DNA of 64,000 nt from an uncultured Candidatus Rokubacteria bacterium (GTDB lineage: Bacteria; Methylomirabilota; Methylomirabilia; Rokubacteriales; CSP1-6), in assembly GCA_963789955.1 (NCBI GenBank), contig CAWBMV010000037.1, positions 1 through 64,000 on the forward strand, in the 5' to 3' direction. Shown here one piece after another: positions 18,277-55,655 of the stretch (the stretch's first letter is position 1; each line of letters opens with the position of its first letter). Under the pieces are notes generated by a model, which had not been told where the DNA came from, searched no databases, and was given only the letters and a program-made list of their open reading frames with translations. Position numbers and translations under genes: made by a program.

Positions 18277-18297
18277 TGGTGGAGGGTAAGCGATTCG
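18277..18297 (-). mobile_element. att core: copy of the tRNA-Ala 3' end with one mismatch
   Basis: tggtggagggtaagcgattcg versus tggtggagggtaagggattcg at 55580. Confidence 0.88.
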
Positions 18298-18364
18298 TAG
18301 CTCTTGAGTCTTAAGTAGGGCATACCCTGACCCACTGTACTAGTACATCACCTGGTCCCCTCGG

Positions 18365-18439
18365 TGTTATCCTCGACAAGCCTGCACCTCGGTCTCACCC
18401 GTGGACGCTCTCGGGCGTCGAGACTCCGGTGAATCTGGC
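18365..18439 (+). promoter_or_regulatory. Extended -10 promoter plus structured leader motif, copy A
   Basis: TGTTATCCT-N6-GCCTGCACCTCGGTCTCACCCGTGGACGCTCTCGGGCGTCGAGACTCCGGTGAATCTGGC, upstream of ORF 18500. Confidence 0.75.
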
Positions 18440-18499
18440 GTGGTTCTAGTTGCCCGAGCTGTCAACGGCGACCACCACGACTAGCCGGGAGGCCACCTC

Positions 18500-18754
18500 A
18501 TGACGACTCAAATGACGTTCGACGAGTCGCTACGTATCCTCATCCGAGAAAAATTAGCAAGCGGTGGGCTTGCGCGTAACGGGCTCCGCGGGGCCTCGGG
18601 CGGTCCCGGCAAAGGACAAATCTGTATCGCTTGTGGCACCAGCATTGGAGAGAGCCAGTTCGTCACGGAGGGCATCAGCTCCGGCGAGCACCGCAAGACC
18701 CTCCAGTTCCACGTAGTGTGTTTCTCTATCTGGGATGCAGAGCGAAGAGTGTAA
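18500..18754 (+). CDS. Small putative zinc-binding protein (GGPG..CxxC...FHxxC..W)
   Basis: GGAGG RBS; CIAC and HVVC ligand pairs. Confidence 0.8.
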   Translation: MTTQMTFDESLRILIREKLASGGLARNGLRGASGGPGKGQICIACGTSIGESQFVTEGISSGEHRKTLQFHVVCFSIWDAERRV

Positions 18755-19271
18755 GGGAGTCAAGCCAGGAGCGGTTTCTGCCTTCCCCTGCGTACGCGCC
18801 TAGCCTTCGAGGCTCGGCTTGGTCAGCGCCTGCTTACGCCGCCGCTCGCTTCGTTGCACCATCGAGTCCGCAAAGTATTCGATCCACCAATCCAGTCTAC
18901 TGAAGAGCACCACCAGCCCAATCGCGAGTCCGCTCAGGCCAACGAGAAGGATCAGGGCCGTTTCAATCCCGCTTAGTCCACCCATGACCATTCCTCCTAG
19001 CTCGGGGCTGCCGGGCTCATCCGCCACGAAGGATGCTCAATAGCAGCTTCTAAAGTCTGTTCAAAAGTGCTCACCGTCCGTCGCACACACCCATAGTGAG
19101 CAATTCTGACCAGACATCAGAAACCTGAGTGGACGATCCTCCGGTACAGGGCGCTTCGTCGTGGGAGCCCAGGCATCCAGACGCCTTGAGTCTGGCGTCT
19201 TAGCTGCTACCGACACCTCGGAGGGCGCGCATCAGCTCAGCCTCCGAGTCGCAGGAGCAGGAGGCCGCCTC

Positions 19272-19451
19272 GTGAACAGCCTCGGTACCGGCACCATCGG
19301 GGAGATCATCACGGGCTTCTGCGCCTGGTGCGAAAGCCAGAAGCCCGAGGCCGAGCGCGACCACCGCGAGAACGTCTCGCACGGCATATGTCAGCGGCAC
19401 TTGGTCGAGATGAAAGCCCAGATGGGAGCGCGACCGGAGCCGGCTCGATGA
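19272..19451 (+). CDS. Small putative zinc-binding protein (CAWC...SHGICxxH)
   Basis: AGGAGG RBS before GTG; motif visible; stop overlaps the next ATG. Confidence 0.65.
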   Translation: MNSLGTGTIGEIITGFCAWCESQKPEAERDHRENVSHGICQRHLVEMKAQMGARPEPAR

Positions 19452-19621
19452 TGCGGTGGTGGGCCTTGGCGCTCCTGTCCTCGATCTCGCTCGTCATCGT
19501 CCTGACCGGGTGCGTCCAGCAGCCGCTCGCGTCTTACCGAGATCCTCAAACCGGCAGGCTCTGCTGGGCGCGGCTCGACGCCGACGAAATGCGCTGCACG
19601 ATGCCGAGCCGCACGCCTTGA
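19448..19621 (+). CDS. Small predicted lipoprotein
   Basis: MMRWWALALLSSISLVIVLTGC lipobox; ATGA coupling. Confidence 0.6.
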   Translation: MMRWWALALLSSISLVIVLTGCVQQPLASYRDPQTGRLCWARLDADEMRCTMPSRTP

Positions 19622-19710
19622 AGAAACGCCGGCCGACTGCGAAGGATCAGTTGTGCACTCCTCGGTAGTCGCTCGCTTCTAAGCTGGAATCCAGATCTCC
19701 AGGAGCCGAC

Positions 19711-20004
19711 ATGGAAGCCCAAGCGATTCGAACAAAGCGTGACGACGACGTCGGGCAGTGCATCGAGGCTGCGATCGCGCGGCGGAGGGACGTGTTCGCA
19801 CTCAGCGATGTGGTTTGGACGGCCGACTATGGCTACATCGTGAAGTTTCGCCTGGGCGTCTTCGATGTCGTGAGGACTGCAGTTGAGATGGTCGTGTTCG
19901 AGGAATCCTGGCGCATGGACAGAATGCTCGACGGGGTTCGCCTCACGTTCAAAGCTTTAGCGACTCGCGTGTCGTACGCCGTGGGGGATGCTCCAGGAGC
20001 CTGA
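19711..20004 (+). CDS. Hypothetical protein
   Basis: AGGAG RBS, ATG start, 97 aa. Confidence 0.6.
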   Translation: MEAQAIRTKRDDDVGQCIEAAIARRRDVFALSDVVWTADYGYIVKFRLGVFDVVRTAVEMVVFEESWRMDRMLDGVRLTFKALATRVSYAVGDAPGA

Positions 20005-20068
20005 GCACCTCCACCACCCATTGCATCACCTGCTCCAGGCGGGCGAGTTCTTCACGCTGCTCCGGCGA

Positions 20069-20302
20069 CTAGGTAGGGAGCACAGTGGGACGTCGGAGCC
20101 GACCTTTTGGGCGCGGCGGTTTTGGCTGCCGATCGTCAATCCACTGTTTCACGGCTCGTTCGGCCGCCGCCATGCTCGCAACAGTTTTGAGCCATATGGG
20201 CTCGTCGCGATGGCTATTCGCGTCAGCCCACCAGACGGCGAAGTGATACCGCCCATCGAGACGAATACGGATCTTGTACTTGAAGCCTAGATATTTCTTC
20301 AT
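20069..20302 (-). CDS. Hypothetical protein
   Basis: Protein-like ORF starting MKKYLGFKYKIRIRLDGRYHFAVW. Confidence 0.45.
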   Translation of the reverse strand: MKKYLGFKYKIRIRLDGRYHFAVWWADANSHRDEPIWLKTVASMAAAERAVKQWIDDRQPKPPRPKGRLRRPTVLPT

Positions 20303-20698
20303 TACCGCCCTTATACAACCCCTTGATCCAGGACGGATGGTCAAGTTTGACCAGACATCAACACCCTAGCCGTGGTCTGCTTGCTTCTGTCCGAGAGAAG
20401 CTTCATCCCATCCTGACGACCTCGACGGGCAGCAGGGATTGCCATGGTGGGGGCGGTACTAGGCACATCAAACCGCTGCCTCGACGAGGTCGGCCATGCT
20501 ACAAGCCCTGTTCTCTCGTGTAGCGCTTTTCCGCCAGCGCGCTGTGGCGCTGTTTCACCGCACCGATCCGCTCAAGGCAGATTCTGCTGAACGGCGTGAG
20601 CGCTGGAATCAAGTGATTGCCGAACACAAGAAGGACCAGCAAAAGATCAAACACTGACCGTTCGGTGTTTGTCGAAAGCTGAGAAAGTGAGGATTCCG

Positions 20699-21160
20699 AT
20701 GATCACGATCTTTCGTTGTTTTCGGAGATTGAATATCGCTTTGTTGGCGGCGGGGGCTGTTGCCGCCTGTAGCCAGATGCCCTCGTCGCAACAGCCGGTG
20801 CAATCGAGTAACCCCAGCGTCACTTATAACTATCGGACAGACCAGGAACTGCTCAAAGCCAACCAGAACGCGACGACGTATTGCGGTCAGTATCAAACCG
20901 CCCCGCGAACTGCGGGCCTCACGAACAACCCGGACGGCAGCAAGGCCGTGGTCTTCGAATGTGTGCGGACCGCTCTGTCCGCGGCGGCGCCGGTCAATCC
21001 CAACCTGAGCTACACATACCGGTCGGACCAGGAGCTGGTGCAAGCGTCGCAGACCGCTAACGCCTACTGCCTAAAGTACGGCTCGCAACCGATGACATCT
21101 AACATGGTGACGAACTCGGACGGGACCAAGAGCGTGACGTTCCAATGTGGTTCACGTTGA
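20699..21160 (+). CDS. Lipoprotein with two internal Cys-containing repeats
   Basis: VAAC lipobox; repeats NPSVTYNYRTDQEL..ATTYC..FEC and NPNLSYTYRSDQEL..ANAYC..FQC. Confidence 0.82.
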   Translation: MITIFRCFRRLNIALLAAGAVAACSQMPSSQQPVQSSNPSVTYNYRTDQELLKANQNATTYCGQYQTAPRTAGLTNNPDGSKAVVFECVRTALSAAAPVNPNLSYTYRSDQELVQASQTANAYCLKYGSQPMTSNMVTNSDGTKSVTFQCGSR

Positions 21161-21227
21161 GTTCCAGCCACCGCTGAGGCCAGTGTCGTCCGTTCCACAC
21201 TGGGACGAGGAGAGGCGCGTCCCGGCT

Positions 21228-21281
21228 CATCCCAGTCGTGTAGAAGGTCGCGCGCCAGCCTCGGTCATCGTCCTGAGTCAT
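21228..21281 (-). pseudogene. Internal fragment of scaffold family W
   Basis: TQDDDRGWRATFYTTGM matches 40013-40336. Confidence 0.8.
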
Positions 21282-21964
21282 GCGTCAGCCTGATAGACGT
21301 GGTGGCCTCGGTAGGCTTCGCAGGCGGCGAGGAGCAATTCCAACTCATCGCCAGTGCAGTCGATCGCAATCCGAAGCACGCGGAGGCCATCGTTCGCCTC
21401 CTTGACCGCGATCATCTGTAGCGCGTCGCGGCTGAAGACGAGGATCTCGTGCCCCGTCGCCACGTCGATGCCGAAAATTACGTCGGCCGCCTCGAATGCC
21501 ATCCGCCACTGAGGGACCGTGATGTACTCCAACCCACCCCAGGCCCTCACATAGCTTCCGATCCCCAGCTCCGCTCGTGGGGTGTCCTCCGTCCGGAGCG
21601 CCATGGCGACGACTCGCTTGAGGTAGCCGAGATCGAACGGCTTGTCGATATAGGCAAGAGCACCGAGCTCGAGGGACTCGCGGGCAAGCACAGGGTCGGT
21701 ATTCCCGCTCGCTATGAGCACTTTGGTCGTCGGGGCATTCGAACGGATTCGCTTGAGCACATCAATGCCATTCATGCCGCCAGGCAGCGCAACATCGAGA
21801 ATCACGAGATCAGGACGAGACAACATCACACGCTCGAGGCCCTCGTCGCAGGTCAGCGCGCCTGAGGCCCGATATCCTTCGTCGCAGAGGTAGGTAGTCA
21901 GAATATCGACAATATCGGCGTTGTCATCGATCACGACGATCTGGGCCGCTGAAGCGTTCATCAT
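21278..21964 (-). CDS. Response regulator receiver domain fused to an unknown C-terminal domain
   Basis: VIDD, VILDVALPGGMNG, SG and KPF receiver motifs. Confidence 0.85.
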   Translation of the reverse strand: MMNASAAQIVVIDDNADIVDILTTYLCDEGYRASGALTCDEGLERVMLSRPDLVILDVALPGGMNGIDVLKRIRSNAPTTKVLIASGNTDPVLARESLELGALAYIDKPFDLGYLKRVVAMALRTEDTPRAELGIGSYVRAWGGLEYITVPQWRMAFEAADVIFGIDVATGHEILVFSRDALQMIAVKEANDGLRVLRIAIDCTGDELELLLAACEAYRGHHVYQADA

Positions 21965-22012
21965 TGCTGCGACGCCGCTACGGTAGCACCAATGGTCAAT
22001 CAGTTGGGCGGC

Positions 22013-22606
22013 AGGGTAAGGGATTCAACCGTTCGATCACTCGCAATGCCAATGATTTAGGTGGTTCTCCCCTGCACCAAGCGGCACGAGGCGGTACTCC
22101 GCGTCCACCGGCGTCCACGCAGAGCGCCGGTGCCGTTCACGTCACTCTTGGAGCGCGGCCGAGACGCATCATTGCTTGCCCTCGTCGGCGGTCGCGCGCT
22201 TCACGCTGATGCGCTCGTGCGCGCTCCAGCTCGGCAAGTCAGTCAACTCGGGCTGGCGCACCTTCCGCACGCGGGCGTGGGCATTCTTCCCGGCTGCCGT
22301 CGTGAAGGGCCGCCCAGTGACCTCCCACTCGCCGGTCTCGTCCATGATGTGGTCGCCGAGCTGGAGCTCCATCGGCAGGACGCGGCGCGTGGGCCGGCCG
22401 GGTCGCCGGGGTGACAACTTTCCAGTGCGGATCACTTCACGGGCTTTCGCGCGTAGAACAGTCTCGTCGGGCATGGTGGCTCTCCAGAGTCCGGCGGGTG
22501 GTCATGCCAGATGCCAGGAGGCCGGACGCCTGCTCGCGTCACCCTGGGGAGAGCCCGATGGGAGGCAGTCATTCGTTTACGCCTCGAAGGACCAGAGCGT
22601 ACGAGG
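22013..22606. repeat. About 590 bp diverged direct repeat of 37307-37899, starting with a partial att core
   Basis: Runs from agggtaagggattcaacc to gaccagagcgtacgagg in both places, with scattered SNPs and indels. Confidence 0.92.
22169..22474 (-). CDS. Chimeric small ORF: foreign N-terminus plus scaffold family G
   Basis: MPDETVLRAKAREVIRTGKL.. joined to RVLPMELQLGD..GEWEV..ISVKRAT. Confidence 0.75.
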   Translation of the reverse strand: MPDETVLRAKAREVIRTGKLSPRRPGRPTRRVLPMELQLGDHIMDETGEWEVTGRPFTTAAGKNAHARVRKVRQPELTDLPSWSAHERISVKRATADEGKQ

Positions 22607-22650
22607 TAATGGCGGGAGTTCGAGCGCAGACAGGGTGGGACCGGGCACAG

Positions 22651-22863
22651 CTAGCTCGTCTCTACCTTCTTGAGTGCCTCCCACGCCGTCCGCTGCACCG
22701 CGTGCCACGGCCTGCGCTCCCACCCCGTGCCGGTCGCGCTCGTGGGCGAGTGTTCCATCCCGGTCGGGTAGAACGTCGCCCTCCAGCCCCGGTCATCATA
22801 CTGAGTCAGCTTGAAGGTCATAACCCTGGCGGTGCATCCCCACAGCGAGGTGCCCGATTCCGG
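22651..22863 (-). pseudogene. 3' part of scaffold family W with a frameshift
   Basis: GIGHLAVGMHRQGYDL / LTQYDDRGWRATFYPTGMEHSPTSATGTGWE..AWEALKK. Confidence 0.85.
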
Positions 22864-22991
22864 TCAAGGCGTTTGAGCGCGCGACAGGCTTTCCCGATGT
22901 TCGCCTGGAAGTGAGATTCTGATCTCATGCGCCATGATCCGGGTTACATCCACTGCACATTGATACCGTCCGCCAGCTCAAAGGAGACTGG

Positions 22992-23693
22992 TTGAAGGCT
23001 ATGACGCGATGGGCCGTCGGCGGCGCCATCGTGGCTGCACTTATTGGGTACGGCGTCTGGCTCGTATGGACCGACGCGCCAGCATATCAATTCCTCGCCC
23101 GTCTCTACCTGGATAAGGAGTTTCTCAAGCACACATTAGGCGAGTGGGACGTACTCGCGCCGGTCATTTTCATGGGCCTCCAGGCGCTGCAGGTCATCAT
23201 TGCGCCGATCCCCGGTGAGTTGACGGGAATCCTTGGCGGCTATCTGTTTGGCGAATGGGTGGGGTTGTTCTACTCGACAATTGGGCAGACCGTGGGATCG
23301 GTGGCAGCGTTCGGCATTGGGCGCTGGCTCGGCACTCATTACGTTCAGCGAATGGTGAGCCCCGACGTTTGGCGCAAGCTCGGCTTCATCGTCGAAGCGG
23401 AGGGAGCCATTGTATGCTTCATCATCTTTTTGGTTCCCGGCCTGCCGAAGGACATGATCTGCTATCTCTTCGGGCTGAGTCCCATGCCGTTCTGGGTCTT
23501 TGCTCTGGTTTCGACACTCGGTCGCATTCCGGGCACGTGGATACTCTCGGCGCAAGGTGCTCGGACTGAATCGGGTGACTATGTGCAAGTAATTTTGCTC
23601 ACGGCGCTCGCCGTAGCGGCGGCGTTGCCGCTGTACTACTACCGGAACCGGCTCATCGACTGGTTCAAAGGTCGGCAGGCAGGTATCCGCTGA
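22992..23693 (+). CDS. TVP38/TMEM64 (VTT, DedA superfamily) membrane protein
   Basis: LQALQVIIAPIPGE..GGYLFG, FLVPGLPKD, GRIPG. Confidence 0.88.
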   Translation: MKAMTRWAVGGAIVAALIGYGVWLVWTDAPAYQFLARLYLDKEFLKHTLGEWDVLAPVIFMGLQALQVIIAPIPGELTGILGGYLFGEWVGLFYSTIGQTVGSVAAFGIGRWLGTHYVQRMVSPDVWRKLGFIVEAEGAIVCFIIFLVPGLPKDMICYLFGLSPMPFWVFALVSTLGRIPGTWILSAQGARTESGDYVQVILLTALAVAAALPLYYYRNRLIDWFKGRQAGIR

Positions 23694-23758
23694 ATCATGA
23701 CTTGTTCGCGAAGTGCGCCTGGTTCAGCGGGGCGACAGCTGGTGATCCTCCGCCGACG

Positions 23759-23818
23759 TCATCGCGTGCCCTCCTCGGGGCTGGCTCGGGTCACGCTGAT
23801 ACGCTTCAAAGCGTCCCA
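23759..23818 (-). pseudogene. 3' tail of scaffold family G
   Basis: WDALKRISVTRASPEEGTR* versus WSAHERISVKRATAEEGKQ*. Confidence 0.65.
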
Positions 23819-24146
23819 ATTGCGGATCTGCCAACTGGCAGGCTGGTCGATTTTCTGAGCGCGAGCGTGGACGATCCTTCCGCCAGCGGTAGCGTAGGGC
23901 TGACCCAGCTGGCCCCCGAACTCGTCGATCGACCAGGAGAAGCAATAGGGCGCGTCACGAGGAACCGGAGGAATTGCGTCGAGACATGGACGAAGGCCCG
24001 GTCATACGCGTCGTCCTTGTATGACAATTCGCTCATCGCCCGTGAGAGTCTATCCAAACGCCACCAGGCGCACCAGCGCCTCGCCGGGACTGCACCGGGG
24101 CGCTGGCCCAGCACGCGCTGCTTTCGAGCCCGTGGATTGCTGACGG

Positions 24147-24611
24147 TTACGGAATGCGGCGAAGGGTGACGGTGGTCCCGTCGTTCAGGGCCCCGGAAAT
24201 CTGCTCGCAGCTCACCTTCAGCAGTGGAGTCCCGCGAAATCCACCGCGCTCGCTCAGCTGGATAGTGTTGCCCTGCACCGTGCCCTCGATAGGGCCATCG
24301 ACAGTGCCAGACCCGCTGAGGGTCCCCGTCACATTGTTTCCCGTCTGCTTCAGGACCACCACCATTGTCGAGGCGCCCCCCGTTTTGCCACCCATCCACG
24401 TTCCATCGACGGTGTAGGGAGTGGCGCGGCGAAGGTCGACCGCGGTCCCGCTCAGGAGCCCGTCTATCTTCTCGCAGCTCGCCCTCAGCAGCGGAGTCTC
24501 GCGAAATCCACCGCGCTGTTTCAGCTTGATGGAGTTGCTGTCCACGGTGCCCTCGATTCCTGCCTTGCGGACCAGAAGTTCCACCAGCTGACCATGCCGG
24601 GGTCGCCGCAA
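24147..24611 (-). CDS. Hypothetical beta-rich protein with an internal duplication, probably 5' truncated
   Basis: IEGTVxxNxIxLxxRGGFRxTPLLxxSCExIxG occurs twice. Confidence 0.6.
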   Translation of the reverse strand: MRRPRHGQLVELLVRKAGIEGTVDSNSIKLKQRGGFRETPLLRASCEKIDGLLSGTAVDLRRATPYTVDGTWMGGKTGGASTMVVVLKQTGNNVTGTLSGSGTVDGPIEGTVQGNTIQLSERGGFRGTPLLKVSCEQISGALNDGTTVTLRRIP

Positions 24612-24719
24612 GCGTTACGACACGGAGCAGGTCTCGGCGCTCAGTACTTGATCGTTCGCCAAGGTGCCATATCGGCGTCCAACACACCGACGTAAACGGT
24701 GCTCTTGCTTCTCAGCGTC

Positions 24720-25139
24720 TCAGCTTCGGGGGGCGGACGGGCCGAAGACGGGGAGGTTATACTCGCCGAATTTGTCGGTGGCGTCGATCCAGCGGAGCTC
24801 CAGCGTCATGCCGTCGCGGAGGTCGCTGGGCTCGACGTCGACGGGATAGGAGATGAAGAGCGGGCCTTCGGCCAGCTCGAGCGCGACGACGGTGTGGGGC
24901 GGCGGATACTCCGGGAAGTAGCCGCGGTGGAACGTCGTCCACGAGAGCACCTTCGCCTTGCCGCTGAGCGGGGACCACGCGAAGTCGTCGGACAGGCAGC
25001 GGTCGCAGGTCGGGCCCGGCGGCCAGCGGAACTTCCCGCAGGCCGAGCACTGCTGCAGGCGCAGCTCTCTCGACAGTGTGAACGTCCAGAACTGCTCGGC
25101 GTACGGATCCATCGCGCGTACCGGTCGGGCCGTCGCCAT
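24720..25139 (-). CDS. DUF35 zinc-ribbon/OB-fold protein (thiolase partner)
   Basis: FW..LRLQQCSACG..PP..CDRC..GKAKVLSWT..VALELAEGP. Confidence 0.9.
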   Translation of the reverse strand: MATARPVRAMDPYAEQFWTFTLSRELRLQQCSACGKFRWPPGPTCDRCLSDDFAWSPLSGKAKVLSWTTFHRGYFPEYPPPHTVVALELAEGPLFISYPVDVEPSDLRDGMTLELRWIDATDKFGEYNLPVFGPSAPRS

Positions 25140-25141
25140 CG

Positions 25142-26344
25142 TCACGCTCCCCTGGTGTAGATCAGGCTCTTGCACTTGCCGGCGACGTCGTGGACGTACT
25201 GGGCGACCTCGGCGCCCTGCACCTGCCGGTTGCCGAGACCGCCGCGCAGCTGGCGGACCAGCTCGGGCTGGTGGTTCCAGCTCTGCATGTAGCTCTCGGA
25301 GAGCATCCCGCCGCTGGTGTTGCACGGCAGCTCGCCGCCGATCTCGATGCGGCCGCCCTGCACGAACGTGCCGGCCTCGCCCTCCTTGCAGAAGCCGAAC
25401 CCTTCGAGCGAGGCCAGGAGGTGCACGCTGAAGCTGTCGTAGGTGGCGAACACGTCGACATCCTTCGGCGTCACGCCAGCCATCGGATAGACCTGGGCCG
25501 CCACGTCGTGATGGGCGCCGTGATAGAAGGTCTTCAGCCGGGGCCGCAGCTGGGTGGCGTCTACGTTCTCCTCGGACCATCCGAAGCCGCTCACCATGAC
25601 GGGCCGCTGCTTGAGATCCCTCGCCAGGTCGGCGCGACGGACGATGATCGCAACCCCGCCGTCGTTGATAAGGCAGTAGTCGTTGAGGCGCAGGGGCTCG
25701 GCGATGTATGGCGCATTCAAATAGTCCTGGATCGTGAGCGGCTTCTGCATCACCGCGTTCGGGTTCAAGCAGGCGTGCTTGCGGAACGCCACCGCGACCG
25801 CGCCGAGCTGCTCGTCGGTGGTGCCGTAGAGCAGCTTGTGGCGCTGGAAGAAGAGCGCGTAGAGCGCGCCCTGCGAGGTCATGCCCCACGGGGCGTAGTA
25901 GAAGTACGAGGTGATCGCGCCGCCGGTCACGCGCGCCCCGCCGTAGGCCGTGTCCATCGAGCGCTGGGCGTTGCCGTAGACCAGGGCGACGGTCGTGCAG
26001 AGCCCGGCGTTGATGGCCAGCGTCGCCTCGATGATGCATTGCGCAGCGTCGCCGCCCCCGCTCCAGCGCGGGTTCAGGCCCCACTGTTCGCTGGCCCGCT
26101 CGCCGGACAGCGTGCCCCCGACGCACAGGCCATCGATGTCGTCCTTCTTCAATCCCGCGTCGTCCAGCGCACGCTTGAGTGCCCTCGACGCCAGCGTGTA
26201 CGAGTCGTAGCGGACCTCGCCCTTGCTCACGGTCTGGCCGCCGGCTCCCCGGTAATCCTTCCCGTAGTCGGTCTCGCCGACACCGACGACCGCTACGGCA
26301 TCCTTCAGCGGCGCGAGCCGCGCCCGGTCGAAGCTCACCGCCAT
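25142..26344 (-). CDS. Thiolase family protein (SCP-x / non-specific lipid transfer type)
   Basis: AVVGVGET, RKHACLNPNA, DYCLINDGG, YDSFS, NTSGGMLSE. Confidence 0.9.
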   Translation of the reverse strand: MAVSFDRARLAPLKDAVAVVGVGETDYGKDYRGAGGQTVSKGEVRYDSYTLASRALKRALDDAGLKKDDIDGLCVGGTLSGERASEQWGLNPRWSGGGDAAQCIIEATLAINAGLCTTVALVYGNAQRSMDTAYGGARVTGGAITSYFYYAPWGMTSQGALYALFFQRHKLLYGTTDEQLGAVAVAFRKHACLNPNAVMQKPLTIQDYLNAPYIAEPLRLNDYCLINDGGVAIIVRRADLARDLKQRPVMVSGFGWSEENVDATQLRPRLKTFYHGAHHDVAAQVYPMAGVTPKDVDVFATYDSFSVHLLASLEGFGFCKEGEAGTFVQGGRIEIGGELPCNTSGGMLSESYMQSWNHQPELVRQLRGGLGNRQVQGAEVAQYVHDVAGKCKSLIYTRGA

Positions 26345-26354
26345 CGCAGCCTCC

Positions 26355-28930: not shown

Positions 28931-28989
28931 CTCCGTCTCCTACACGCGCGGCGTGACGTCGCGCACCGGGGCCGCGCCGCAACCGGCCG

Positions 28990-46975: not shown

Positions 46976-47003
46976 GAACAACCAGGAACAGCGAAATGCG
47001 GTG

Positions 47004-47850
47004 TTGAACAAGCCCCAAGTCCTGATCAGTCCGCGCTGCGCCTGCGGATCCGGGAGCCCGCCCACGCGAGGCCACGATGTCGTCGGTATCATTCGTCCGA
47101 CACCCACGCGAACCGTCAGACCTCAAAGCTTCGCGCGCCGCTCCAACATCTGTCGAAGCCCGCGAGGTCGACGCGAGGAGAACCCCGTGAAGCACACCCG
47201 CGAACGGCGCTCCGCTGGTCGAGACGCTATCTTTTGCCTTGACCCGCTCTCTCGACTCTACTACGCCGCAGACCGTCTCGCTCGCTGGCGCCGAGCGTCT
47301 GCCCGCAGGACGTGACGCAGCCCCAGACATCGCCGGTCGCACGTGATGGCGGTCGGCGGCATGAACGCGCTGCACGCGGTCACGTCGAGCGGGCGGCCCT
47401 CCGGCGCCGTCTCAAGGAGGCTCAGCTGCACCTCAGTGCCGCGGATCGGACACCAGATTTTGCGATGCACCTTCCGCACGCTGAGGGCGCCGAGAAACAG
47501 CAGCACTGCGATGGCGGCGATCCAAAGGCTCATGATCGTGATCATGACTTTCCGCCTCCACAGCGGGGCGCTGCATGGATGGTGCCGAGACCCGGCGGCC
47601 GCCCTTTGGGCGGCAGGACGCGCTGTCGATACACGGGCTTTGGGGCCAAGCGTCCGTTGCTCGGCGCGGCGTCCATGAGGCTGACGGCTGGGGCATTGTC
47701 GTCGCGGGTGAGACAGCGGTGCCCCGGCGGACCTCGGACGGGCGTGTCCTCTGCCGCGTGGCGTGGCGTCACCCAGCGCCCGAACACCACGCCACACGGG
47801 CATGTCGCGGTGAGCAGGTAACGATTTCACGCCGGCTCCGTGGCGTCGGC
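47004..47850. repeat. Second copy of the 847 bp repeat, containing the Cys4 membrane ORF at 47261-47545 (-) and part of scaffold family A
   Basis: Alignment by eye with 33816-34662. Confidence 0.95.
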
Positions 47851-48078
47851 AGCTACGTCGGTACCATCGTAAACGGGGTACCGATTGGCGGTTATCGTCG
47901 CGTCGCCACCGTGCCACTTGCCGTTGGAGAGAACGAGGTCGTGGCTGGCGGCCCGAGGTCGCCCTTCCGGTTTCGCGTGGTCGTGTCGGTGCGGGAGTTA
48001 AGCTCCACCGGAGCACGGAAGACATCCAGACGACTCGGTCGTTACGCGGGGCACGTATAGGGCCCACGACCGCTCATC

Positions 48079-48235
48079 TCAGCTCAGCGACGCCATCCGG
48101 AGCAGATCCAGCTCGGCATCCTCAGGCGTGACCCACCCCCCAACACCACCCCACGGACACGCCACGGTGAGCAAGTAACCATTCCACGCGGGCTGGGTGG
48201 CGTCGGCGGTCAGAGGCCGTGAGGGCGATGGTCAA
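48079..48235 (-). pseudogene. Scaffold family A, frameshifted
   Basis: DHRPHG / LTADATQPAWNGYLLTVACP / WVTPEDAELDLLRMASLS*. Confidence 0.8.
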
Positions 48236-48403
48236 CGCATGATACTCCTCGCGCTCAGCGAGCAGGATCACGACGGGAAGGTGTGCTCTCGAAGAAGCGG
48301 AAGAAGTATTGGTTGGGGCTGACCGGGAAGACGAAGCGTTACGACTACCCCTGAGGATTCGTCGAACTCAGTCGGTTCGCCGTCTCTTTGCTGTGCGGCA
48401 CTG

Positions 48404-51400
48404 TCACTTAGCGAGGTCGGGCACCCGGACGTTCGCGCGGAGCGCGGCGGAGAGCTCAGGGTCGCGCACGCCGCGCTTCAAGTCGTCCAGGATCGCCTGC
48501 GCGGCCTCCACCGACGTGAAGGCGGAGTCCGCGTCGCCGCTCGCGCGCGCCAGCTTCGCGCGGGCGACGTGCGTCTTCCAGATCTGCGTTGGGAACTTGA
48601 TCGACTCCGCAACTGCGAGAGCAATGCGTAGCGCCGAGTCCGCCTCTCGCCACTGGCGACTTGCGATCGCGATTTCGCCCAGCACGCGGTTCGCCTTGGC
48701 CACGTACTTTTGCGCACGAGTCTTGACGGCCGCTGCGAGGCATCGCTCCGCCTGGGCGCGCGCCTCGTCCCACGCTCCTCGGGCGACCGCATGGTCAGCG
48801 AGGCTCGCGTACCAATGGAGCGAATAGCGCCACCGCATCCAGCCGCTGTTCGCTGGATCCTCGATGAGTCCCTGGACACTCTCCAGGAGCTCAAGGGCGA
48901 GGGCGAGGTCACCGCGCTGCAGCAGGATGTCCGCCAGGTTCAGCTCGGCATTCGCGATCATCTCGTGGTCCCCTCGCTTGCGCGCCTGCTCCGCGGCGAG
49001 ACGGTTGAGCTCGTACGCGCGGTCCAGCGCGCCGCACTCCATGTAGAGCCAGCCGAGAGAGTTCAACGATCGCGGCGTGTAGTTCTCGTCGCCCACCTTT
49101 GTGGCGAGCGCGAGCCCATCCTGGAGGATCGCGAGGGCGGCATCGTAGTCGCCCTTGCCCGTGAGGTTGACGCCTGCCATGAAGTGTCCTTCCAGCGCCG
49201 GCATCAACACGCCATGCGCGCGGGCGAGGCGGATGCCCTGATCGTAGAGCCGCGCGGCTTGCTCGTGCTTGCCTTCCCAGGCGTCGAGCTCTGCGCCGAA
49301 CACGAGCGCCGTTGCTTCGTTGGCGACGTCGCCCACGGGACGGCTGATCGCGATGACCCGATCGAAGCCGGGGCGCGCCTCGTCGAGACGGCCCGTGATC
49401 TCGTGGACGAGCGCCGTGGTGAGGTGACCGCCGGCGAGCACGGTGGGCTCGCCCGTCGTCTCACCGAGCGCGATCGCGCGGGCGCTGTCGTCGAGGGCCT
49501 GCGCGAATCGATGCGCCCAAAACGACGCGAGCGCCATGCCGACGACGGCGCTGCCTTCGGCGACGCGGTCGCCGGCTTCCCGCGCAATTTGCGAGGCCCG
49601 TTCCGCGTCTGCGCGCGCCCGGTCGAAGTCGCTGACGAGATTGTAGAGTTCCCCGCGGGCACGATGCATGGCGATGCGAGTGGCCGCGGGTACCTCCGGG
49701 CCGAGGTGCGCCATGGCCTCCTCCGCCTGGCCATAGAGCGCGATCGCCTCGCGGGTCGCGAAGTTCGCCGCGGCTTTCTCCGCGGCTTTGAGGCGGTAGG
49801 TCACGGCCTTCGGCCACTCTTCCGCCTGACCGAAGTGGCGCGCGAGCACCTCGACGTGATCCCCGAGGCGGTCGGCGTAGAGCGTCTCGATCGCCACGCC
49901 GATCGCACCATGGAGGTGTTTGCGCTGACTCAGCAGCAGTGAACCGTATGCGACCTCGTGCGTCAGCGCGTGACGAAAGAGATAGGTCACGTCGGGATCG
50001 ATGCTCTTCTGGTGGATCAGCTCGAGACGCAGCAGCTCGCGTACCGATGGCTCGGTCGGCGTTCCAGGCTCGACGAGGCGATCGAGTAAGCGACGGCCGA
50101 ACTCGCGTCCGATCACCGAAGCCGTCTGGAGAACCCGCTTCGGCCCGTCGGCCAGCCGGTCGATGCGGGCGGTGATGATGCCCTGAACGGTCTCCGGCAC
50201 GACGGTCGCCCCTTCCTGATGCGACTTCACGATCTCCTCGACGAAAAGCGGGTTGCCGTCAGCGCGACGAGCGATGGCGTCGCGAAGCGTCGATGGCACA
50301 TCGCCGGTCACGAGAACGCCGCGCGCGACGCTCAGGCTCTCCGCGTCCGACAGCGCGCCGAGGGCGATGCGAGTGAAGTACGAGCGTTCGCCGAACGGAT
50401 GGACATATCCCGTGCGATGCGTGAGCACGTGCAGGGTCCGGCTCGCCGGTACACTGTCGATTATCGCGGCCAGCCACTCCTCGCTCGCGCCGTCCATCCA
50501 GTGGATGTCTTCGTAGACGATGACCCGCGGCTCGGACTCGGCGGCGCGGCGGAAGTATCGGCGCAGCGCCTGGAAGAGCTCGGCACGTCGCTCCTGCGGA
50601 TCCATCTGCGTGACCGCCGCATCGCCGGGCGTGACGCCCAGTAGATGCTGCACGAATGGAAGACCCGCGCGGAGGTCGTCACCGAACGGCTGGAAGGCCC
50701 GGTCGATCTTCATCGCGACGGCGTCCTCCCGATCACCGTCGTCGATATCGAACTCGCGATGAAGCAGGTCGATGACCGGATGGAACGCCATCGAGCGTCC
50801 GAAGGAGACACAGCGGCCCTCGGACCACCCGGCCTGCTCGCGCGCTCGCTGGCGCAGCTCCTCCACGAGGCGCGATTTCCCGATGCCGGGCTCGCCGACG
50901 ATGAAGACGACCTGACCGTTGCCGGCGCACGCGCGCTGGAAGCACTCCTCGAGTTGTGAGAGCTCCCGCTGGCGGCCGACGAGCGGCGTGAGGCCGCGCT
51001 CACGCCCCACGTCGAGCCGACCGCGCGCCGGGCGTGCCACCACGACCTGCCAGGCCTTGACGAGCTCGCTCTTGCCCTTGAGCTGCAAGCCGGCAATCGG
51101 CTGCGCCTCGCAGTACCCCGCGACCAGCCGATGAACGGGCTCGGCGATCAGGATCTGGCCCGGCGCCGCCGACTGCTGGAGCCGTGCCGCGACATTGGTC
51201 GTGTCGCCGACGGCGGTGTAGTCCATGCGGAGATCGCTGCCGATGCTACCGACGACCACGAGCCCCGTGTTGAGCCCTTGCCGCACGTCGAAGGTGATGC
51301 CACGTTCCCGGCGTAGCTTCTCGCGATAGTCCGTGAGCGCGGTGCGGATGCCCGCCGCCGCGTACACCGCGCGCCGCGCGTGGTCTTCGTGGGCGACCGG

Positions 51401-51838
51401 CGCGCCGAATAAGGCCATGATGCCGTCGCCCAGGAACTGGTTCACCGTGCCCTCGTAGCGATGGACCTCGGCGAGCATGAGCTCGAACGCGCGGCGCATG
51501 ATCGCGTGGACGTCCTCGGGATCGAGCCGCGACGACATCGCCGTGAACCCCGCGACGTCGACGAAAAGCACCGTGACCTGCTTGCGTTCGCCCTCGAGCG
51601 CGCTTCGCGAGGTGAGGATCTTCTCGGCGAGGTGTTTCGGCGTGTAGGACTCGGGTGAGGCGAAGCGCGGTTGTGTTGGCGCTTCCGCCTTAACCGGTGT
51701 CCCGCACTTGTTGCAGAACTTGGAACCGACTGGCAGTTCCGCTCCACAGGAAGCGCAGGCCGGGGCCAAACGACCTCCGCATTCCAGGCAGAAGGCTGAG
51801 CCTGGCGGATTCTCGTGCTGGCACCGGGGACACTGCAT
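48404..51838 (-). CDS. Double zinc ribbon, class III adenylate/guanylate cyclase, AAA (STAND-like) ATPase and TPR protein
   Basis: Four CxxC; TVLFVDVAGFT, QFLGDG, GDTTNVAARLQ; GEPGIGKS, EDIHW, GNPLF. Confidence 0.95.
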   Translation of the reverse strand: MQCPRCQHENPPGSAFCLECGGRLAPACASCGAELPVGSKFCNKCGTPVKAEAPTQPRFASPESYTPKHLAEKILTSRSALEGERKQVTVLFVDVAGFTAMSSRLDPEDVHAIMRRAFELMLAEVHRYEGTVNQFLGDGIMALFGAPVAHEDHARRAVYAAAGIRTALTDYREKLRRERGITFDVRQGLNTGLVVVGSIGSDLRMDYTAVGDTTNVAARLQQSAAPGQILIAEPVHRLVAGYCEAQPIAGLQLKGKSELVKAWQVVVARPARGRLDVGRERGLTPLVGRQRELSQLEECFQRACAGNGQVVFIVGEPGIGKSRLVEELRQRAREQAGWSEGRCVSFGRSMAFHPVIDLLHREFDIDDGDREDAVAMKIDRAFQPFGDDLRAGLPFVQHLLGVTPGDAAVTQMDPQERRAELFQALRRYFRRAAESEPRVIVYEDIHWMDGASEEWLAAIIDSVPASRTLHVLTHRTGYVHPFGERSYFTRIALGALSDAESLSVARGVLVTGDVPSTLRDAIARRADGNPLFVEEIVKSHQEGATVVPETVQGIITARIDRLADGPKRVLQTASVIGREFGRRLLDRLVEPGTPTEPSVRELLRLELIHQKSIDPDVTYLFRHALTHEVAYGSLLLSQRKHLHGAIGVAIETLYADRLGDHVEVLARHFGQAEEWPKAVTYRLKAAEKAAANFATREAIALYGQAEEAMAHLGPEVPAATRIAMHRARGELYNLVSDFDRARADAERASQIAREAGDRVAEGSAVVGMALASFWAHRFAQALDDSARAIALGETTGEPTVLAGGHLTTALVHEITGRLDEARPGFDRVIAISRPVGDVANEATALVFGAELDAWEGKHEQAARLYDQGIRLARAHGVLMPALEGHFMAGVNLTGKGDYDAALAILQDGLALATKVGDENYTPRSLNSLGWLYMECGALDRAYELNRLAAEQARKRGDHEMIANAELNLADILLQRGDLALALELLESVQGLIEDPANSGWMRWRYSLHWYASLADHAVARGAWDEARAQAERCLAAAVKTRAQKYVAKANRVLGEIAIASRQWREADSALRIALAVAESIKFPTQIWKTHVARAKLARASGDADSAFTSVEAAQAILDDLKRGVRDPELSAALRANVRVPDLAK

Positions 51839-52144
51839 GTAGCGATCCTCCGGGAGCAGGGCCGGTGACGGTCGGGACGGTGGGCCGAGACTAGACTGTC
51901 GCCTGCTCGGTGGTCAACAACGGCGTCACAAATCGTGTGTGCGGGCGCCGTCGTAAGTCCCTGTTCTCGCGGAGGGCGGGAACGGGTTGCACGGCCGGCG
52001 CAAAGGTGGTGGTTTGTGACATCGCGTTTTCTCCGGTGTTTGACACCATCGGGGTAGTTCCTGTATACGCGACCCAAACCGCCTCCCCAGTTGGTGCGCT
52101 CGGGTTGGACGTCAAGGGGGCCAGAGCGGACGGAGGTGCCAACC

Positions 52145-52477
52145 ATGATCTCCGTAAGAACGAACCGCATCATGTTGGGTGTCCTTCTCGCCGGATTGCT
52201 GACGGCGACGGCGGCGTGCGCTCAGCTTGGCGAGACGCGCCGAGCGCCCGCGGTCAAGCCGGCTCCGGCGGCGGTACAGCAACCCGCGACTGAGTTGGTG
52301 CCGGCAAGTGTACCCGCAGCGGCGAGTGCTCCGGCTACCGAGACGCGCCCGGAACTTACGGTCACGCCGCGTACGCCTGGAGCGGCGGCCGCGGCGGAAC
52401 GGCCGTCGAACGACACGGACGATCCTCGGGCCGTTATCGACTGGCTGCTGAATCCTTCGTCAGTGCGCGGGCGATAA
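52145..52477 (+). CDS. Small secreted or lipoprotein with a Pro/Ala linker and C-terminal DDPRAVIDWLLNP
   Basis: GGAGGT RBS; hydrophobic signal ending TAAC. Confidence 0.75.
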   Translation: MISVRTNRIMLGVLLAGLLTATAACAQLGETRRAPAVKPAPAAVQQPATELVPASVPAAASAPATETRPELTVTPRTPGAAAAAERPSNDTDDPRAVIDWLLNPSSVRGR

Positions 52478-52544
52478 ACAGCTCTGCGTTCGTCCCTCGA
52501 CGCACCCGATTTGACCTGATCCCCGCTTCTGCCTGATGATCGTG

Positions 52545-52995
52545 TCAGCGGCGACTTCCACCCCACCCCGAATAATCCCCACCCCGCTCCGCCGCGCGAT
52601 GCGCACTTTGTCTGGGAGGGGTACGTCTTTGCTGAGGACAAGGATCCCGCGCGGCCGCGGCGTCCGCCGATTCAAGTTCGACCCCTCACCCGAGACGAGA
52701 TTGAGACGTTGTGGTTGGTGACGGCGACCCAGGCTCGGACCATGGCGAGTCTCCACGAGGCGCGGCATTCGGTCGCAAGGCGAACCATGAATGTTGACTC
52801 GTCTCGGCGTCTCAGCGACTATGTCTCAGCGGCGACTCCACCCCACCCCGAGTAATCCCCACCCCACTCCGCCGCCGCGCGACGCGCACTCTGTCTGGGA
52901 GGGGGACGTCTATGCTGACGACAAGGATCCCGCGCGGCCGCGCCGTGCGCCGATTCAAGTTCGACCCCCTCACCGGAGGCGAGATCGAGACGTTG
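52545..52995. repeat. Diverged direct repeat of about 168 bp (52545-52711 and 52826-52995)
   Basis: tcagcggcgac..ccaccccaccccga.taatccccacccc..gacaaggatcccgcgcggccgcg..ttcaagttcgacccc..gagacgttg occurs twice. Confidence 0.9.
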
Positions 52996-53118
52996 CAGTC
53001 CGTCCCCAGCGGGGCCGCCGCCCACCTCGCTGAGTGCAGTTGCAGCGCCAGTGAATCGCACGCCGGTAACTCGCGCGCCGTGCTCGCGGAAATCGCGGTC
53101 TACAGGGCTCAGTAGGGC

Positions 53119-53796
53119 GTGGCCAAGAGCAGCACGAGTTTCGCGCCGGGCGTCTCAGGAAACCCAACCGGCCGGCGTCTGGGCTCCAAGAACACCACCC
53201 CCTCCGTGCGCGAAATCGTGAACGCCGTGGTGACCGAGCATGTCGACGGCGTGAAAGAAGCCTACCGGAAGTCCGCCGTCAACGCGAAATCGGTCCTGCG
53301 CCGCACCGACGTCGACCTCCGCAAGGGGTACATCACGGTCCAGCGCACGGTCTCCGACAAGGGCCGCCGGATCGAGCCCGTCAAGGACGGTGAGGCTCGG
53401 CGGGTGAAGATGTCGCCGGACCTGCAGGCCGCGCTCCGCGACCACCTCGAGGCGATGGCCCTCGAGGCCGGCGTACGACGCTGGACGCCGGAGCAGCGCG
53501 CGCTCGTGTTCCCGACCACGTACGGCGGGATCCTCGGCCACCCGTACTTCCTCGAGCACGTCTGGCGCCCGCTCCTGCAAGCGACGGGCCTGCAGTACCG
53601 GAAGTATCACAGCACGCGCCACACCTACGCGACGTGGCTCCTGTCGGACGGTGCCGATCTCCGGTGGGTGCAGCAGCAGATGGGGCACGCGACGATCGGG
53701 AGGACCGCGGACACCTACGGCCACGTTCAGCCCGAGCGCCACGAGGCCGCGATAGAGGGCCTAGATCGGTATATGAGACAGGCCGCGACTAGCTAG
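53119..53796 (+). pseudogene. In-frame chimera: phage-type SGNPxGR (DUF5681-like) N-terminus plus tyrosine integrase C-terminal half
   Basis: FAPGVSGNPTGRRLGSKN; from 53299 DVDL..ITVQRT..HSTRHTYATWLL..MGHATI..TADTYGH. Confidence 0.88.
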
Positions 53797-54748
53797 CCCC
53801 AGGCGCAACCGGCAGATCATGTTTCGCGGCAACGACTAGGCGCATATATCGCTTAAGCTTCGACACCGGAACGTGAGCGAGGACCACCTTCCGATCGGGC
53901 CGTGGGGTCTCTGCTTCAGAACGTGTTAGCTCTCGACCCTGGTGGCTTTGAAGCAATTCATGGAGATCCCACGACTCAGTCGTGTATTCCCCTATCACGC
54001 GCTCACCATCTTCGTCGGTCACGAGAACATGTCCAGATGCTAAACGAAGATTGATCGTGTACTCCCATACGCGAACGTTCATCGTGACTTCCATATTTTC
54101 CACGCGCTCGATCGCATCCCCGATCTTGACGAACAAGGGCGGGTCAACCATCCCACACTCGTAGATCACCATGCTTGGTGGTTCGCCGATCGTCTGCTCC
54201 GCGATTTGATGTGCGAGTTCTTTTGCCGTACAGAACGGCGTGTCGGCCTCTCCTAGAAGCACCGCTTCGGAAGGCGGCTCCTGTCTGGAGCCGTCCTTGA
54301 GCTTGATCGAGATCGACAGTGGACTCGCTCGACTCAAGACAAGAATGAGCCAGGACTGAGAAGAGGTCACCGTCTGCCAGTCAACTTCGGTCGCCTCTCG
54401 GTAAGTCAAGAGCGTAATGCCCTTACGCTTGGCGACGGCCCGCGCTCCGTCATCAAAACCGGTGTTAGAAACGATGATGCCGTGCGAGGCGCCAACATCC
54501 TCGAGCTTGCTAACGAACGCGTCCACCTTCTCGATTCCAACTCGGCGTTTGTAGCGCTTGCACTCAAGCACGATCAGCGTACGGTACGCGGCGACCACCT
54601 GGGATAGGGTGACGTCGAGTTGCCGCTTACGGCCCGAGCGACCCAGGACACGCTGATTGTGTTTCACCTCCGCGTTGCCTGCGATCCCGTGGTGGAGGTG
54701 AGCGACGAGCTTCTCGAACTCATGCCACTTCGCTGCTCTTTGGACCAC
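53789..54748 (-). CDS. Restriction endonuclease, Mrr_cat-like PD-(D/E)xK domain with an unknown C-terminus
   Basis: WHEFEKLV, GRSGRKRQLDV, LECKRY, GIIVSNTGFDDGA. Confidence 0.85.
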   Translation of the reverse strand: MVQRAAKWHEFEKLVAHLHHGIAGNAEVKHNQRVLGRSGRKRQLDVTLSQVVAAYRTLIVLECKRYKRRVGIEKVDAFVSKLEDVGASHGIIVSNTGFDDGARAVAKRKGITLLTYREATEVDWQTVTSSQSWLILVLSRASPLSISIKLKDGSRQEPPSEAVLLGEADTPFCTAKELAHQIAEQTIGEPPSMVIYECGMVDPPLFVKIGDAIERVENMEVTMNVRVWEYTINLRLASGHVLVTDEDGERVIGEYTTESWDLHELLQSHQGRELTRSEAETPRPDRKVVLAHVPVSKLKRYMRLVVAAKHDLPVAPGAS

Positions 54749-54780
54749 GACTCTGCCCTCGGAGATCCCTTATTCAGACG

Positions 54781-55479
54781 TTAAGCGCTAGGCGTACCCG
54801 GCTTCGCGGCTTTCGTGGCTGCCGCAGCGACCAAAGCCCCCATGCGCGCCTTACGCTCCTCTCGGGCGATATACCATTCGCGGAGCACCGTCTCCACGAG
54901 GCCGATGAGCAGCCCAGCCTCATCCGGATCGACGTCCACGATGAGATTGATGTCCTTCTCCATGTGAGCGCCGATGTTCCCGATCTTGCGAACTGCGTCG
55001 ATCGCATCCCATGTGAGCGGATCAACCTTGGCCTTGATCTGGTCGATCTCGTCGACAAGTCGGCCCGGTTTGACTTGCCAGAAGTCCCGGAGGATGCCTT
55101 GGAGGCACCGGCGCGCGAGTGTTGCCGAGGCTTTCGGGCTCAGATCTATGATCGAGCACGCCTCCTGGTAGTCGTCCAAGATTGCCTGCGGGATATACGA
55201 CGGGAACGTCTTGCCCTTCGCGCTTGGGATGAGCCTCCACTCTTGCAGCTTCTGACCTAGAACCTCGCCGCGCTCCCCCCTATGGAAGCTCTCGCAGAGC
55301 CGGGCCGTCAGCGTGAAGCGACGGCACTCCGGATTCGGACACACAATGAAGGTCGTGATCAGCGACCGGCGACCATTCGCATTGTCGATCCAGAGCGTGT
55401 GTCGCTCGGCGGTCATCCTCCCATCCGAGATGGTGACTGCCCTTTCGCAATGGGGGCATGTCCAGTTGAAATCAGCCAT
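54781..55479 (-). CDS. DUF4145 (HEPN-like) domain protein with an N-terminal zinc ribbon
   Basis: CPHC..CPNPEC; DYQEA..SPKASATLARRCLQ; RKIGNIGAH (Rx4-6H type). Confidence 0.88.
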   Translation of the reverse strand: MADFNWTCPHCERAVTISDGRMTAERHTLWIDNANGRRSLITTFIVCPNPECRRFTLTARLCESFHRGERGEVLGQKLQEWRLIPSAKGKTFPSYIPQAILDDYQEACSIIDLSPKASATLARRCLQGILRDFWQVKPGRLVDEIDQIKAKVDPLTWDAIDAVRKIGNIGAHMEKDINLIVDVDPDEAGLLIGLVETVLREWYIAREERKARMGALVAAAATKAAKPGTPSA

Positions 55480-55579
55480 CTTGCTCCTGGCCAGGAGAGG
55501 CGGTGAGGACAGGCGCCGCAGCGCGCCACCATGCGCCACCGATTCCGCAAAATGTTTTCTAACTACGCGAAAAAAGTAA

Positions 55580-55655
55580 TGGTGGAGGGTAAGGGATTCG
55601 AACCCTCGACCTCGGCGTTGCGAACGCCGCGCTCTCCCAACTGAGCTAACCCCCC
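55580..55655 (-). tRNA. tRNA-Ala(CGC)
   Basis: GGGGGGTTAGCTCAGTTGGGAGAGCGCGGCGTTCGCAACGCCGAGGTCGAGGGTTCGAATCCCTTACCCTCCACCA; cloverleaf, G3:U70, encoded CCA. Confidence 0.98.

Follow-up and report, generated by a model that had tools for sequence, protein, structure and literature searches.

A probable tandem array of decayed tRNA-Ala(CGC) islands carries a lineage-specific small-gene module in an uncultured Candidatus Rokubacteria bacterium

The window analysed here, a 64,000-nt stretch of an uncultured Candidatus Rokubacteria bacterium (assembly GCA_963789955.1, contig CAWBMV010000037.1), is the first 64 kb of a 533-kb contig in a 6.77-Mb metagenome bin of 38 contigs with ~70% G+C (87% complete, 5% contamination), and between positions 18277 and 55655 it holds what is probably a tandem array of at least four related islands that were inserted at a tRNA-Ala(CGC) gene by tyrosine integrases and then decayed. 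The 21-nt 3′ end of this gene, the core of the attachment site (att), occurs in four copies at no more than one mismatch, against none expected from 100 shuffles. Together with one partial copy, these all lie in direct orientation and divide positions 18298-55579 into four head-to-tail units, named E3, E2, E1a and E1b in order away from the tRNA (Table 1). The units are bounded by direct repeats that copy a tRNA 3′ end, as genomic islands are, and they lie in direct orientation with a common att, the arrangement of an accretion array. At every att copy ~25 nt on the tRNA-distal side are also alike (TAACTAC..GAGAAG), and G+C is 59-68% within the array compared with 69-71% in the flanks. Besides a lipoprotein-like open reading frame X, the array carries, in several copies, a few small genes (W, G, S and A) and an orphan ABC-type substrate-binding protein (SBP) gene, which the initial annotation took for ordered scaffolds that serve as landing pads for cargo swapping.

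Remnants of a tyrosine integrase gene sit at the tRNA-proximal end of both E3 and E2. In E2 the catalytic domain PF00589 scores over positions 129-171 only, at 37039-37170; genome-wide there are 10 PF00589 matches, and the two within the window are both partial. With att sites kept and no working integration genes, the units have the make-up of cis-mobilizable elements (CIMEs). We scanned with Pfam all 293 stop-to-stop frames of at least 75 aa overlapping 17000-57000. None of these frames matched the relaxase, coupling protein or type IV secretion families that mark integrative and conjugative or integrative and mobilizable elements (ICEs and IMEs), and none matched a transposase family, in agreement with the initial annotation, which had seen no transposase, attC site or insertion sequence (IS) end. 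An inverted-repeat search returned 20 pairs, all imperfect and none tied to gene boundaries, and revealed no attC-like hairpins or IS-like repeats, although it used no dedicated attC model. The repeats of the array itself are direct, with no matching inverted repeats of the kind that a shufflon possesses. Against integron-integrase models the best scores were 40 bits for TIGR02249 (cut-off 265) and 20 bits for NF011946 (cut-off 435).

The outer limits of the array are visible in related species. In a sister species both flanking genes, a Band 7 gene beside the tRNA and a SpoIIE/HATPase gene past the distal att, are present at 94-96% protein identity, and nucleotide homology ends at 55580, at the tRNA, and restarts at 18300, as at the two boundaries of an island. 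The att-bounded integrative units at tRNA-Ala that the initial annotation described are upheld by both the att copies and the synteny breaks. The same site in the sister species is occupied by a 39-kb array of two units. Its three att copies stand at the tRNA, 8.1 kb beyond it and at the distal boundary, and the array shares with the window only the tRNA-adjacent integrase remnant and one 110-nt stretch. Its cargo comprises IS elements, ABC transporters, glycosyltransferases and a cytochrome P460; no SBP, W or A is found in it, and G occurs only as a 28-residue fragment. Another species carries at this site a 6.1-kb att-bounded unit with a partial W, another a related integrase beside the tRNA (58% identity over 142 residues), and in one species a W head lies ~6 kb from the tRNA-Ala. 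Cargo at the orthologous tRNA-Ala site therefore does differ between species. In a further species (locus L109, G009:C428, 3368-8717), the E1a operon lies 1.15 kb from the SpoIIE ortholog at 94.6% identity, with no att or tRNA between the two and both ~94% identical to the window. Because the operon stands beside the same flanking gene there, the distal cargo is old and shared and the proximal units are not, in keeping with a distal position of older units.

The layout can be accounted for by accretion and decay. Each integration would rebuild the tRNA gene, with its 3′ end now repeated at the other border of the island; an island arriving later could use the att of the resident one, so that units accrete head to tail; integrase genes would then erode, leaving att-bounded CIME-like remnants unable to move alone; and the truncated genes and the mosaic would come from deletions and frameshifts, together with two or more recent events of segmental duplication or conversion from unit to unit. 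On this model the small genes would ride in the islands as an operon-like module, not as a recombination device. A passage of PMC5704250 describes the same three steps, integration, decay to a CIME and further integration into the resident att. The window shows an ordinary kind of island array, not a new recombination system.

Two recent exchanges or duplications between units are apparent. Positions 22013-22609 and 37307-37902 form a 598-bp duplicate, 97.2% identical, which starts inside the att and spans S and G, and a second tract (847 bp) links E3 with E2. These tracts show that units duplicate or convert one another's sequence, as related elements in tandem ordinarily do.

Table 1. Coordinates of the tRNA gene, att copies, units and genes of the array within the 64,000-nt window.
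Feature	Position (nt)	Strand	Remarks
tRNA-Ala(CGC)	55580..55655	-	only tRNA gene in window; only RNA matched by Rfam
att core, last 21 nt of tRNA-Ala(CGC)	55580-55600		reference for other copies
att copy	37301..37321	+	1 mismatch; E3/E2 boundary
att copy	29311..29331	+	0 mismatches; E2/E1a boundary
Partial att copy	22013..22027	+	15 nt, with a 14-nt core; opens 598-bp duplicate of E3 left end
Distal att copy	18277..18297	+	1 mismatch; synteny with relatives restarts here
Unit E3	37322..55579		18.3 kb; adjoins tRNA
Unit E2	29332..37300		8.0 kb
Unit E1a	22028..29310		7.3 kb; no integrase remnant
Unit E1b	18298..22012		3.7 kb; 59-62% GC; no integrase remnant
E3 tyrosine integrase remnant	53116..53793	+	PF00589 positions 44-171 of 172; no N-terminal domain; DUF5681-like start fused
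E2 tyrosine integrase remnant	36531..37215	+	in two frames; ends 86 nt before att
847-bp tract	47004..47850 vs 33816-34662		98.8% identical; includes A copies
SBP (PF04392)	40343..41347	-	intact, orphan; stop 3-4 nt before W start
SBP 3′ tail	38496..38627	-	remainder of gene absent
SBP tail of E2	about 33343-33365		~20 nt
W of E3	40016..40339	-	full length (108-residue frame)
W of E2	33031..33342	-	residues 1-90; ~20 nt SBP tail ahead
W pseudogene	37880..38199	-	head, replaced middle, residues 51-89, frameshift
W head	38462-38492		10 codons
W fragment of E1a	22654-22863	-	
W fragment of E1b	21228-21284		19 residues
X	38197..38492	-	lipoprotein-like open reading frame; opens with first 10 W codons
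G of E3	37466..37861	-	
G of E2	29770..30231	-	conserved part 29770-30009
G of E1a	22172-22501	-	
G fragment of E1a	23762..24001	-	diverged
S	29585..29770	-	only 61-aa copy; signal-peptide-like N-terminus
A copy	48082..48231	-	C-terminal part; N-terminal part in another frame
A copies in 847-bp tract	47545-47856 and 34357-34803		
A-like C-terminus	42043..42333	-	weak; 21 residues at 62% identity
DNA-ligase fragment	33161-33778		ahead of E2 W
CoA-transferase/thiolase-like/ChsH2 operon of E1a	24723-28939	-	
E1b response regulator	21281-22024	-	
Mrr_cat nuclease-like gene	53792-54748	-	between E3 integrase remnant and tRNA
DUF4145 gene	54784-55539	-	between E3 integrase remnant and tRNA
First short multi-copy stretch	42989-43074, 18380-18441, 13620-13695		
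Second short multi-copy stretch	46236-46336, 51825-51918		

All-against-all blastp of the six-frame open reading frames (ORFs), together with their translations, confirms the SBP and the families A, W, G and S at the places where the initial annotation put them, with the A-like C-terminus at 42043 a weak match. All A copies in the window are truncated or frameshifted. The reported order of integrase remnant, A, SBP, W, G, S and att likewise holds in both 37322-55579 and 29332-37300. The S start overlaps the G stop (ATGA) at 37466, 29770 and 22172, and the S copies starting at 37466 and 22172 stop after 11 codons. The statement that G-S precedes an att three times describes the sequence correctly, yet it amounts to two independent cases, since two of the three lie in the one 598-bp duplicate. 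Read on the minus strand from 38627 downward, E3 holds an SBP tail, X, another W head whose middle is replaced, residues 51-89 of W, then, past a frameshift, the W C-terminus, and G; here the module is present a second time, rearranged, next to the intact SBP-W pair. The 293 frames include no ABC permease or ATPase to go with the SBP, and W, G, A and S have no match in Pfam, NCBIfam or PHROGs, nor W and G in PADLOC. The ESM Atlas returned unnamed Rokuibacteriota/Methylomirabilota clusters only, plus one cluster in which Pseudomonadota is the most frequent phylum; the source names attached to the closest proteins likewise indicate Rokuibacteriota/Methylomirabilota. An extra copy of the G family lies far outside the array, at the start of the contig (window positions 158-367, plus strand).

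W is a real gene. Among 13 full-length copies (four from this genome and nine from relatives; 78 pairs), the median ratio of nonsynonymous to synonymous substitution (dN/dS) is 0.16 and the median dS is 0.90, values that show purifying selection on W and an old age of its copies. The predicted model of W (pLDDT 86.6) has three N-terminal helices followed by an alpha-beta-beta-beta-alpha unit that weakly resembles double-stranded-RNA-binding domains (Foldseek E 0.19 or worse; VIA Z 5-6.5). That of G (pLDDT 80.2) is a small beta-barrel resembling domain I of eIF5A/EF-P (E 0.009-0.1, TM 0.57-0.64). Both S and X start like signal peptides, and in X the first ten W codons run on into a lipoprotein signal. 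The likenesses of W and G may serve as leads only, and no function is assigned on them; neither the predicted folds nor the putative signal peptides point to a mobility function for W, G, S or X.

The module is widespread. In this genome W lies in three regions (the tRNA-Ala array, a tRNA-Lys region and one region without a tRNA), besides a weak 35-residue match; G matches fall on 7 contigs, and SBP paralogs on 13, most of them without W. A word-index search yielded 3360 W clusters at 90% identity, G has 563 clusters, and at 50% identity 2370 W representatives match at E<=0.001. Of 41 related genomes 26 have W, as does every one of the 16 congeners; a genome has between 1 and 38 matches, the larger genomes having more, and many of the matches are partial or with stops. 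Alignment of the sequence upstream of W places the SBP stop 3-4 nt before the GTG/ATG start of W, and SBP remnants of ~20 to 125 nt persist there where the remainder of the SBP is gone. We further collected 75 W loci from public genomes; almost all of these genomes are Rokuibacteriota or Methylomirabilota bins, and the loci are not independent of one another. Directly upstream of W, the SBP is full in 6 of the 41 loci usable here (those with a W head and sufficient sequence ahead of it), a terminal alignment of 20-222 residues in 14 and lacking in 21, and some of these tails may be frameshifted whole genes. Of 54 loci usable on the downstream side, 10 have G within 1.5 kb; an integrase homolog occurs in 9 of the 75, and two loci show the fuller order of SBP tail, A-like zinc-ribbon-like gene, X, W and G. 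SBP, A, X, W and G make up an operon-like module, SBP-(A-like)-(X)-W-G-(S), which is specific to the lineage and whose many copies in the genus's accessory genome are diverged. This agrees with the earlier description of multi-copy small genes in a preferred order, now seen in this genome and across the genus. W loci are also enriched near tRNAs: a tRNA gene is present in 15 of the 75 loci, against 4.1 ± 1.9 expected from random windows of equal lengths in this one genome, and none of 2000 random sets reached 15. Apart from these loci, a 398-residue frame on contig C34 of this genome (930183-931376, minus strand) begins with W residues 2-86 and ends in an Mrr_cat domain, and is either a fusion or a decayed junction.

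When each of the 59 tRNA and tmRNA genes of this genome was checked for repeats of its 3′ end, a second array emerged at tRNA-Lys(UUU) (contig C20, 33891-66918). Two 45-nt att copies lie 18.7 and 33 kb from the gene, an integrase with a complete catalytic domain adjoins the tRNA, and several SBP, W and G copies plus a ligase fragment lie within; the SBP-W pairs stand in both orientations relative to the tRNA. Smaller cases of 3′-end copies are present at tRNA-Ser, tRNA-Arg, tRNA-Leu and tRNA-Phe genes.

That homology among the small genes lets the elements capture and exchange cargo, in the manner of an integron or shufflon, is in our judgement unlikely. Several features do fit such a picture. 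Ahead of W stand SBP tails that differ in length, here as in 14 of the 41 usable loci elsewhere; the opening 10 codons of W also open X; between SBP and W some genomes have nothing, some an A-like gene and some both an A-like gene and X; identity along the 598-bp tract falls from 97% to 77% in W beyond the G/W boundary; and many of the best 150 of the 2370 W representatives match part of W inside a longer ORF. However, partial ORFs are expected from a decaying multi-copy gene at 70% G+C, where frames stay open, and the structure of X and W, which gives the best local support for genes joined inside scaffold genes, is equally a product of illegitimate recombination and decay. Both W and G exist as old paralogs. 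Within this genome, the longest exact nucleotide match between two copies has a median of 20 nt and a maximum of 35 nt for W, and a median of 12 nt and a maximum of 38 nt for G (36 pairs each). RecA-dependent exchange declines steeply below roughly 25-30 identical bases. With median identical stretches below this range, the copies would support rare exchange only and would be marginal substrates for homology-guided exchange.

The initial annotation had unrelated genes beginning inside the scaffold genes, a statement best supported by X with its W head; the overlap of the beta-lactamase-family gene with W is probably not real, as the frame that appears to start inside W is a stop-to-stop frame whose Pfam domain begins at residue 203. 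Alternative cargo between one and the same scaffold pair was not encountered as a high-identity case: DNA searches with E2, E3 and the SBP-W-G end in 16 congeners returned pieces of at most about 1.7 kb and no syntenic unit. Across the genus such searches gave further short multi-copy pieces of E2 and E3, and ligase fragments lie beside W in two other genomes. The small genes are not low in copy number or randomly ordered, nor is cargo invariant, and such tests fail to separate a landing pad from accretion. We favour accretion because the sister-species array at the same site is nearly without the module, the paralogs are old with short exact matches, the SBP-W pairs at tRNA-Lys are of mixed orientation, and the only recombination site and recombinase that turned up are the tRNA att and the tyrosine integrase; the scaffold or landing-pad role is not supported. 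A narrower version, in which the junction of SBP stop and W start is a recurrent docking point for new genes and a protein-coding analogue of a cassette platform within tRNA islands, we regard as equally doubtful.

Several observations weigh against an array built by accretion. Accretion alone leaves unexplained the SBP tails of many lengths beside W (14 of the 20 loci with SBP upstream), as well as the G-S pair abutting the distal att in two independent units. If W, as a selected gene, relies on the SBP 3′ end for its expression, SBP tails might be retained for that reason. At tRNA-Ser loci of public Rokuibacteriota bins (L051, L060, L062 and L064), an integrase homolog lies upstream of the tRNA, co-oriented with it at a distance of 70-130 nt, with SBP, W and A genes beyond, a geometry unlike that of the tRNA-Ala and tRNA-Lys arrays. 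An empty site was not found in any relative. Neither an intact integrase nor an excisionase is recognised in the array, so past integrase activity is something we infer. Reads did not confirm the junctions: the best public run contains at most 11% of sampled words, and four soil runs gave short contigs, mostly from paralogs. Joints in the soil runs that link W/SBP paralogs were discarded for likeness below 95% or short sides.

Very unlikely, in our estimate, is that the SBP-tail-W(-G-S) block acts as a mobile or copy-out cassette in its own right, spread by an unrecognised mechanism that keeps its 3′ part constant and truncates its 5′ part, so that the tRNA islands are merely where its copies accumulate. 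The SBP end adjoining W is indeed constant and its breakpoints upstream vary, 26 of the 75 loci contain two or more W pieces, and in three soil runs, with 20 kb covered, the bin at 40092-40755 (SBP 3′ end and W start) has at least 5 times the summed depth of any other bin. This depth comes from the many paralogs that soil communities contain. All PF04392 paralogs in the genome, the majority of which lack W, have a conserved SBP C-terminus, and this inflates both the depth and the apparent tails. Moreover, the copies are deeply diverged and under purifying selection, with no recent burst; W fragments are both N-terminal and C-terminal, so truncation is not one-sided; and the Pfam scan of the window frames detected no reverse transcriptase, HUH or other transposase near the W/SBP blocks. 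Least probable of all is that the mosaic is partly an assembly artefact, with repeats collapsed or misjoined at att, W or G copies: the bin is incomplete and partly contaminated, public reads did not confirm the junctions, and of the contigs from 11 relatives with the Band 7 gene a single one covers the entire locus and four stop within ~200 nt of that gene (typical of repeats, and also a warning about assembly), but the contig is 533 kb long, the outer boundaries coincide with att copies when set against a relative that independently holds such an array, and in one soil run, short contigs differ by 0-1 positions from the window at eight separate places, each unique, between 23.3 and 40.8 kb.

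The cargo of the decayed islands is diverse. Read away from the tRNA, E3 begins with the DUF4145 gene, the Mrr-type nuclease gene and the integrase remnant, continues with a large cyclase/AAA_16/TPR protein, A copies, a CDGSH protein, a Ser/Thr kinase, SBP and W, and ends in the beta-lactamase-family gene, an SBP tail, X, the W pseudogene, G and a truncated S. E2 runs from the integrase remnant through a beta-helix fragment, an HNH gene, A, the DNA-ligase fragment and the ~20-nt SBP tail to W, a receiver-domain fragment, G and S. E1a comprises the CoA-transferase/thiolase-like/ChsH2 operon, a DedA/VTT gene, the diverged G fragment, a W fragment, G and a truncated S. The DUF4145 protein beside the tRNA matches the PADLOC model PD-T7-4 at 3e-11, and the gene pair at 53792-55539 may be a small defence-type insertion into the E3 arm; the kinase and the cyclase match defence models through common catalytic domains only. 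The beta-lactamase-family gene (38632-40161, minus strand) has one 72-76% identical counterpart in most genomes of the genus, including one on contig C12 of this genome, and only one relative has a counterpart at 87% identity; the gene has the look of a core-gene paralog acquired by transfer. Just upstream of the E3 integrase remnant, at 52542-52995, lie two tandem ~280-bp copies that are 90-93% identical. Two short (60-100 nt) multi-copy stretches of the window occur in many congeners; at 42985-43080 and 46230-46340 they fold no better than shuffles and have no Rfam match.

Known systems resemble the array to different degrees. Integrons share with it a member of the tyrosine recombinase family beside mostly co-oriented accessory genes, whereas the units here are multi-gene and bounded by tRNA-end copies, with an integron-integrase score far below the cut-off. 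SXT/R391 elements have hot spots of variable DNA between conserved backbone genes for integration, transfer and regulation. Fixed-order conserved genes with variable genes between them recall the landing-pad picture, but the recurring genes here have no recognised mobility function and are absent from the related array at the same site. Closest are the ICESt1-related elements of Streptococcus thermophilus and streptococcal IME arrays (PMC5704250), which likewise consist of head-to-tail units with a common att from the 3′ end of the target gene, and the CIMEs, which likewise have lost integration genes and kept att, with a tyrosine integrase (here a remnant) at one end. In contrast to these, no conjugation or mobilisation genes are recognised here, all integrases are remnants, the host is an uncultured Rokubacteria-like soil bacterium and the units share a lineage-specific small-gene operon. 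The Asn tDNAs of Klebsiella pneumoniae (PMC4891358) likewise harbour differing islands per tRNA site bounded by tRNA 3′-end copies, there among strains and here among species of a genus known only from metagenome bins. Many transposases and integrases are present in Rokubacteria genomes according to a passage of PMC5712423, and among the titles of the literature on Rokubacteria genomic islands or PF04392 none concerns this array or module.

For an abundant uncultured soil phylum, the array means that the accessory genome is built in part through tRNA hot spots, tandem accretion and decay, and that such hot spots turn over completely between species. The orphan PF04392 SBP with W and G is a very common uncharacterised operon family and a reasonable target for functional work.

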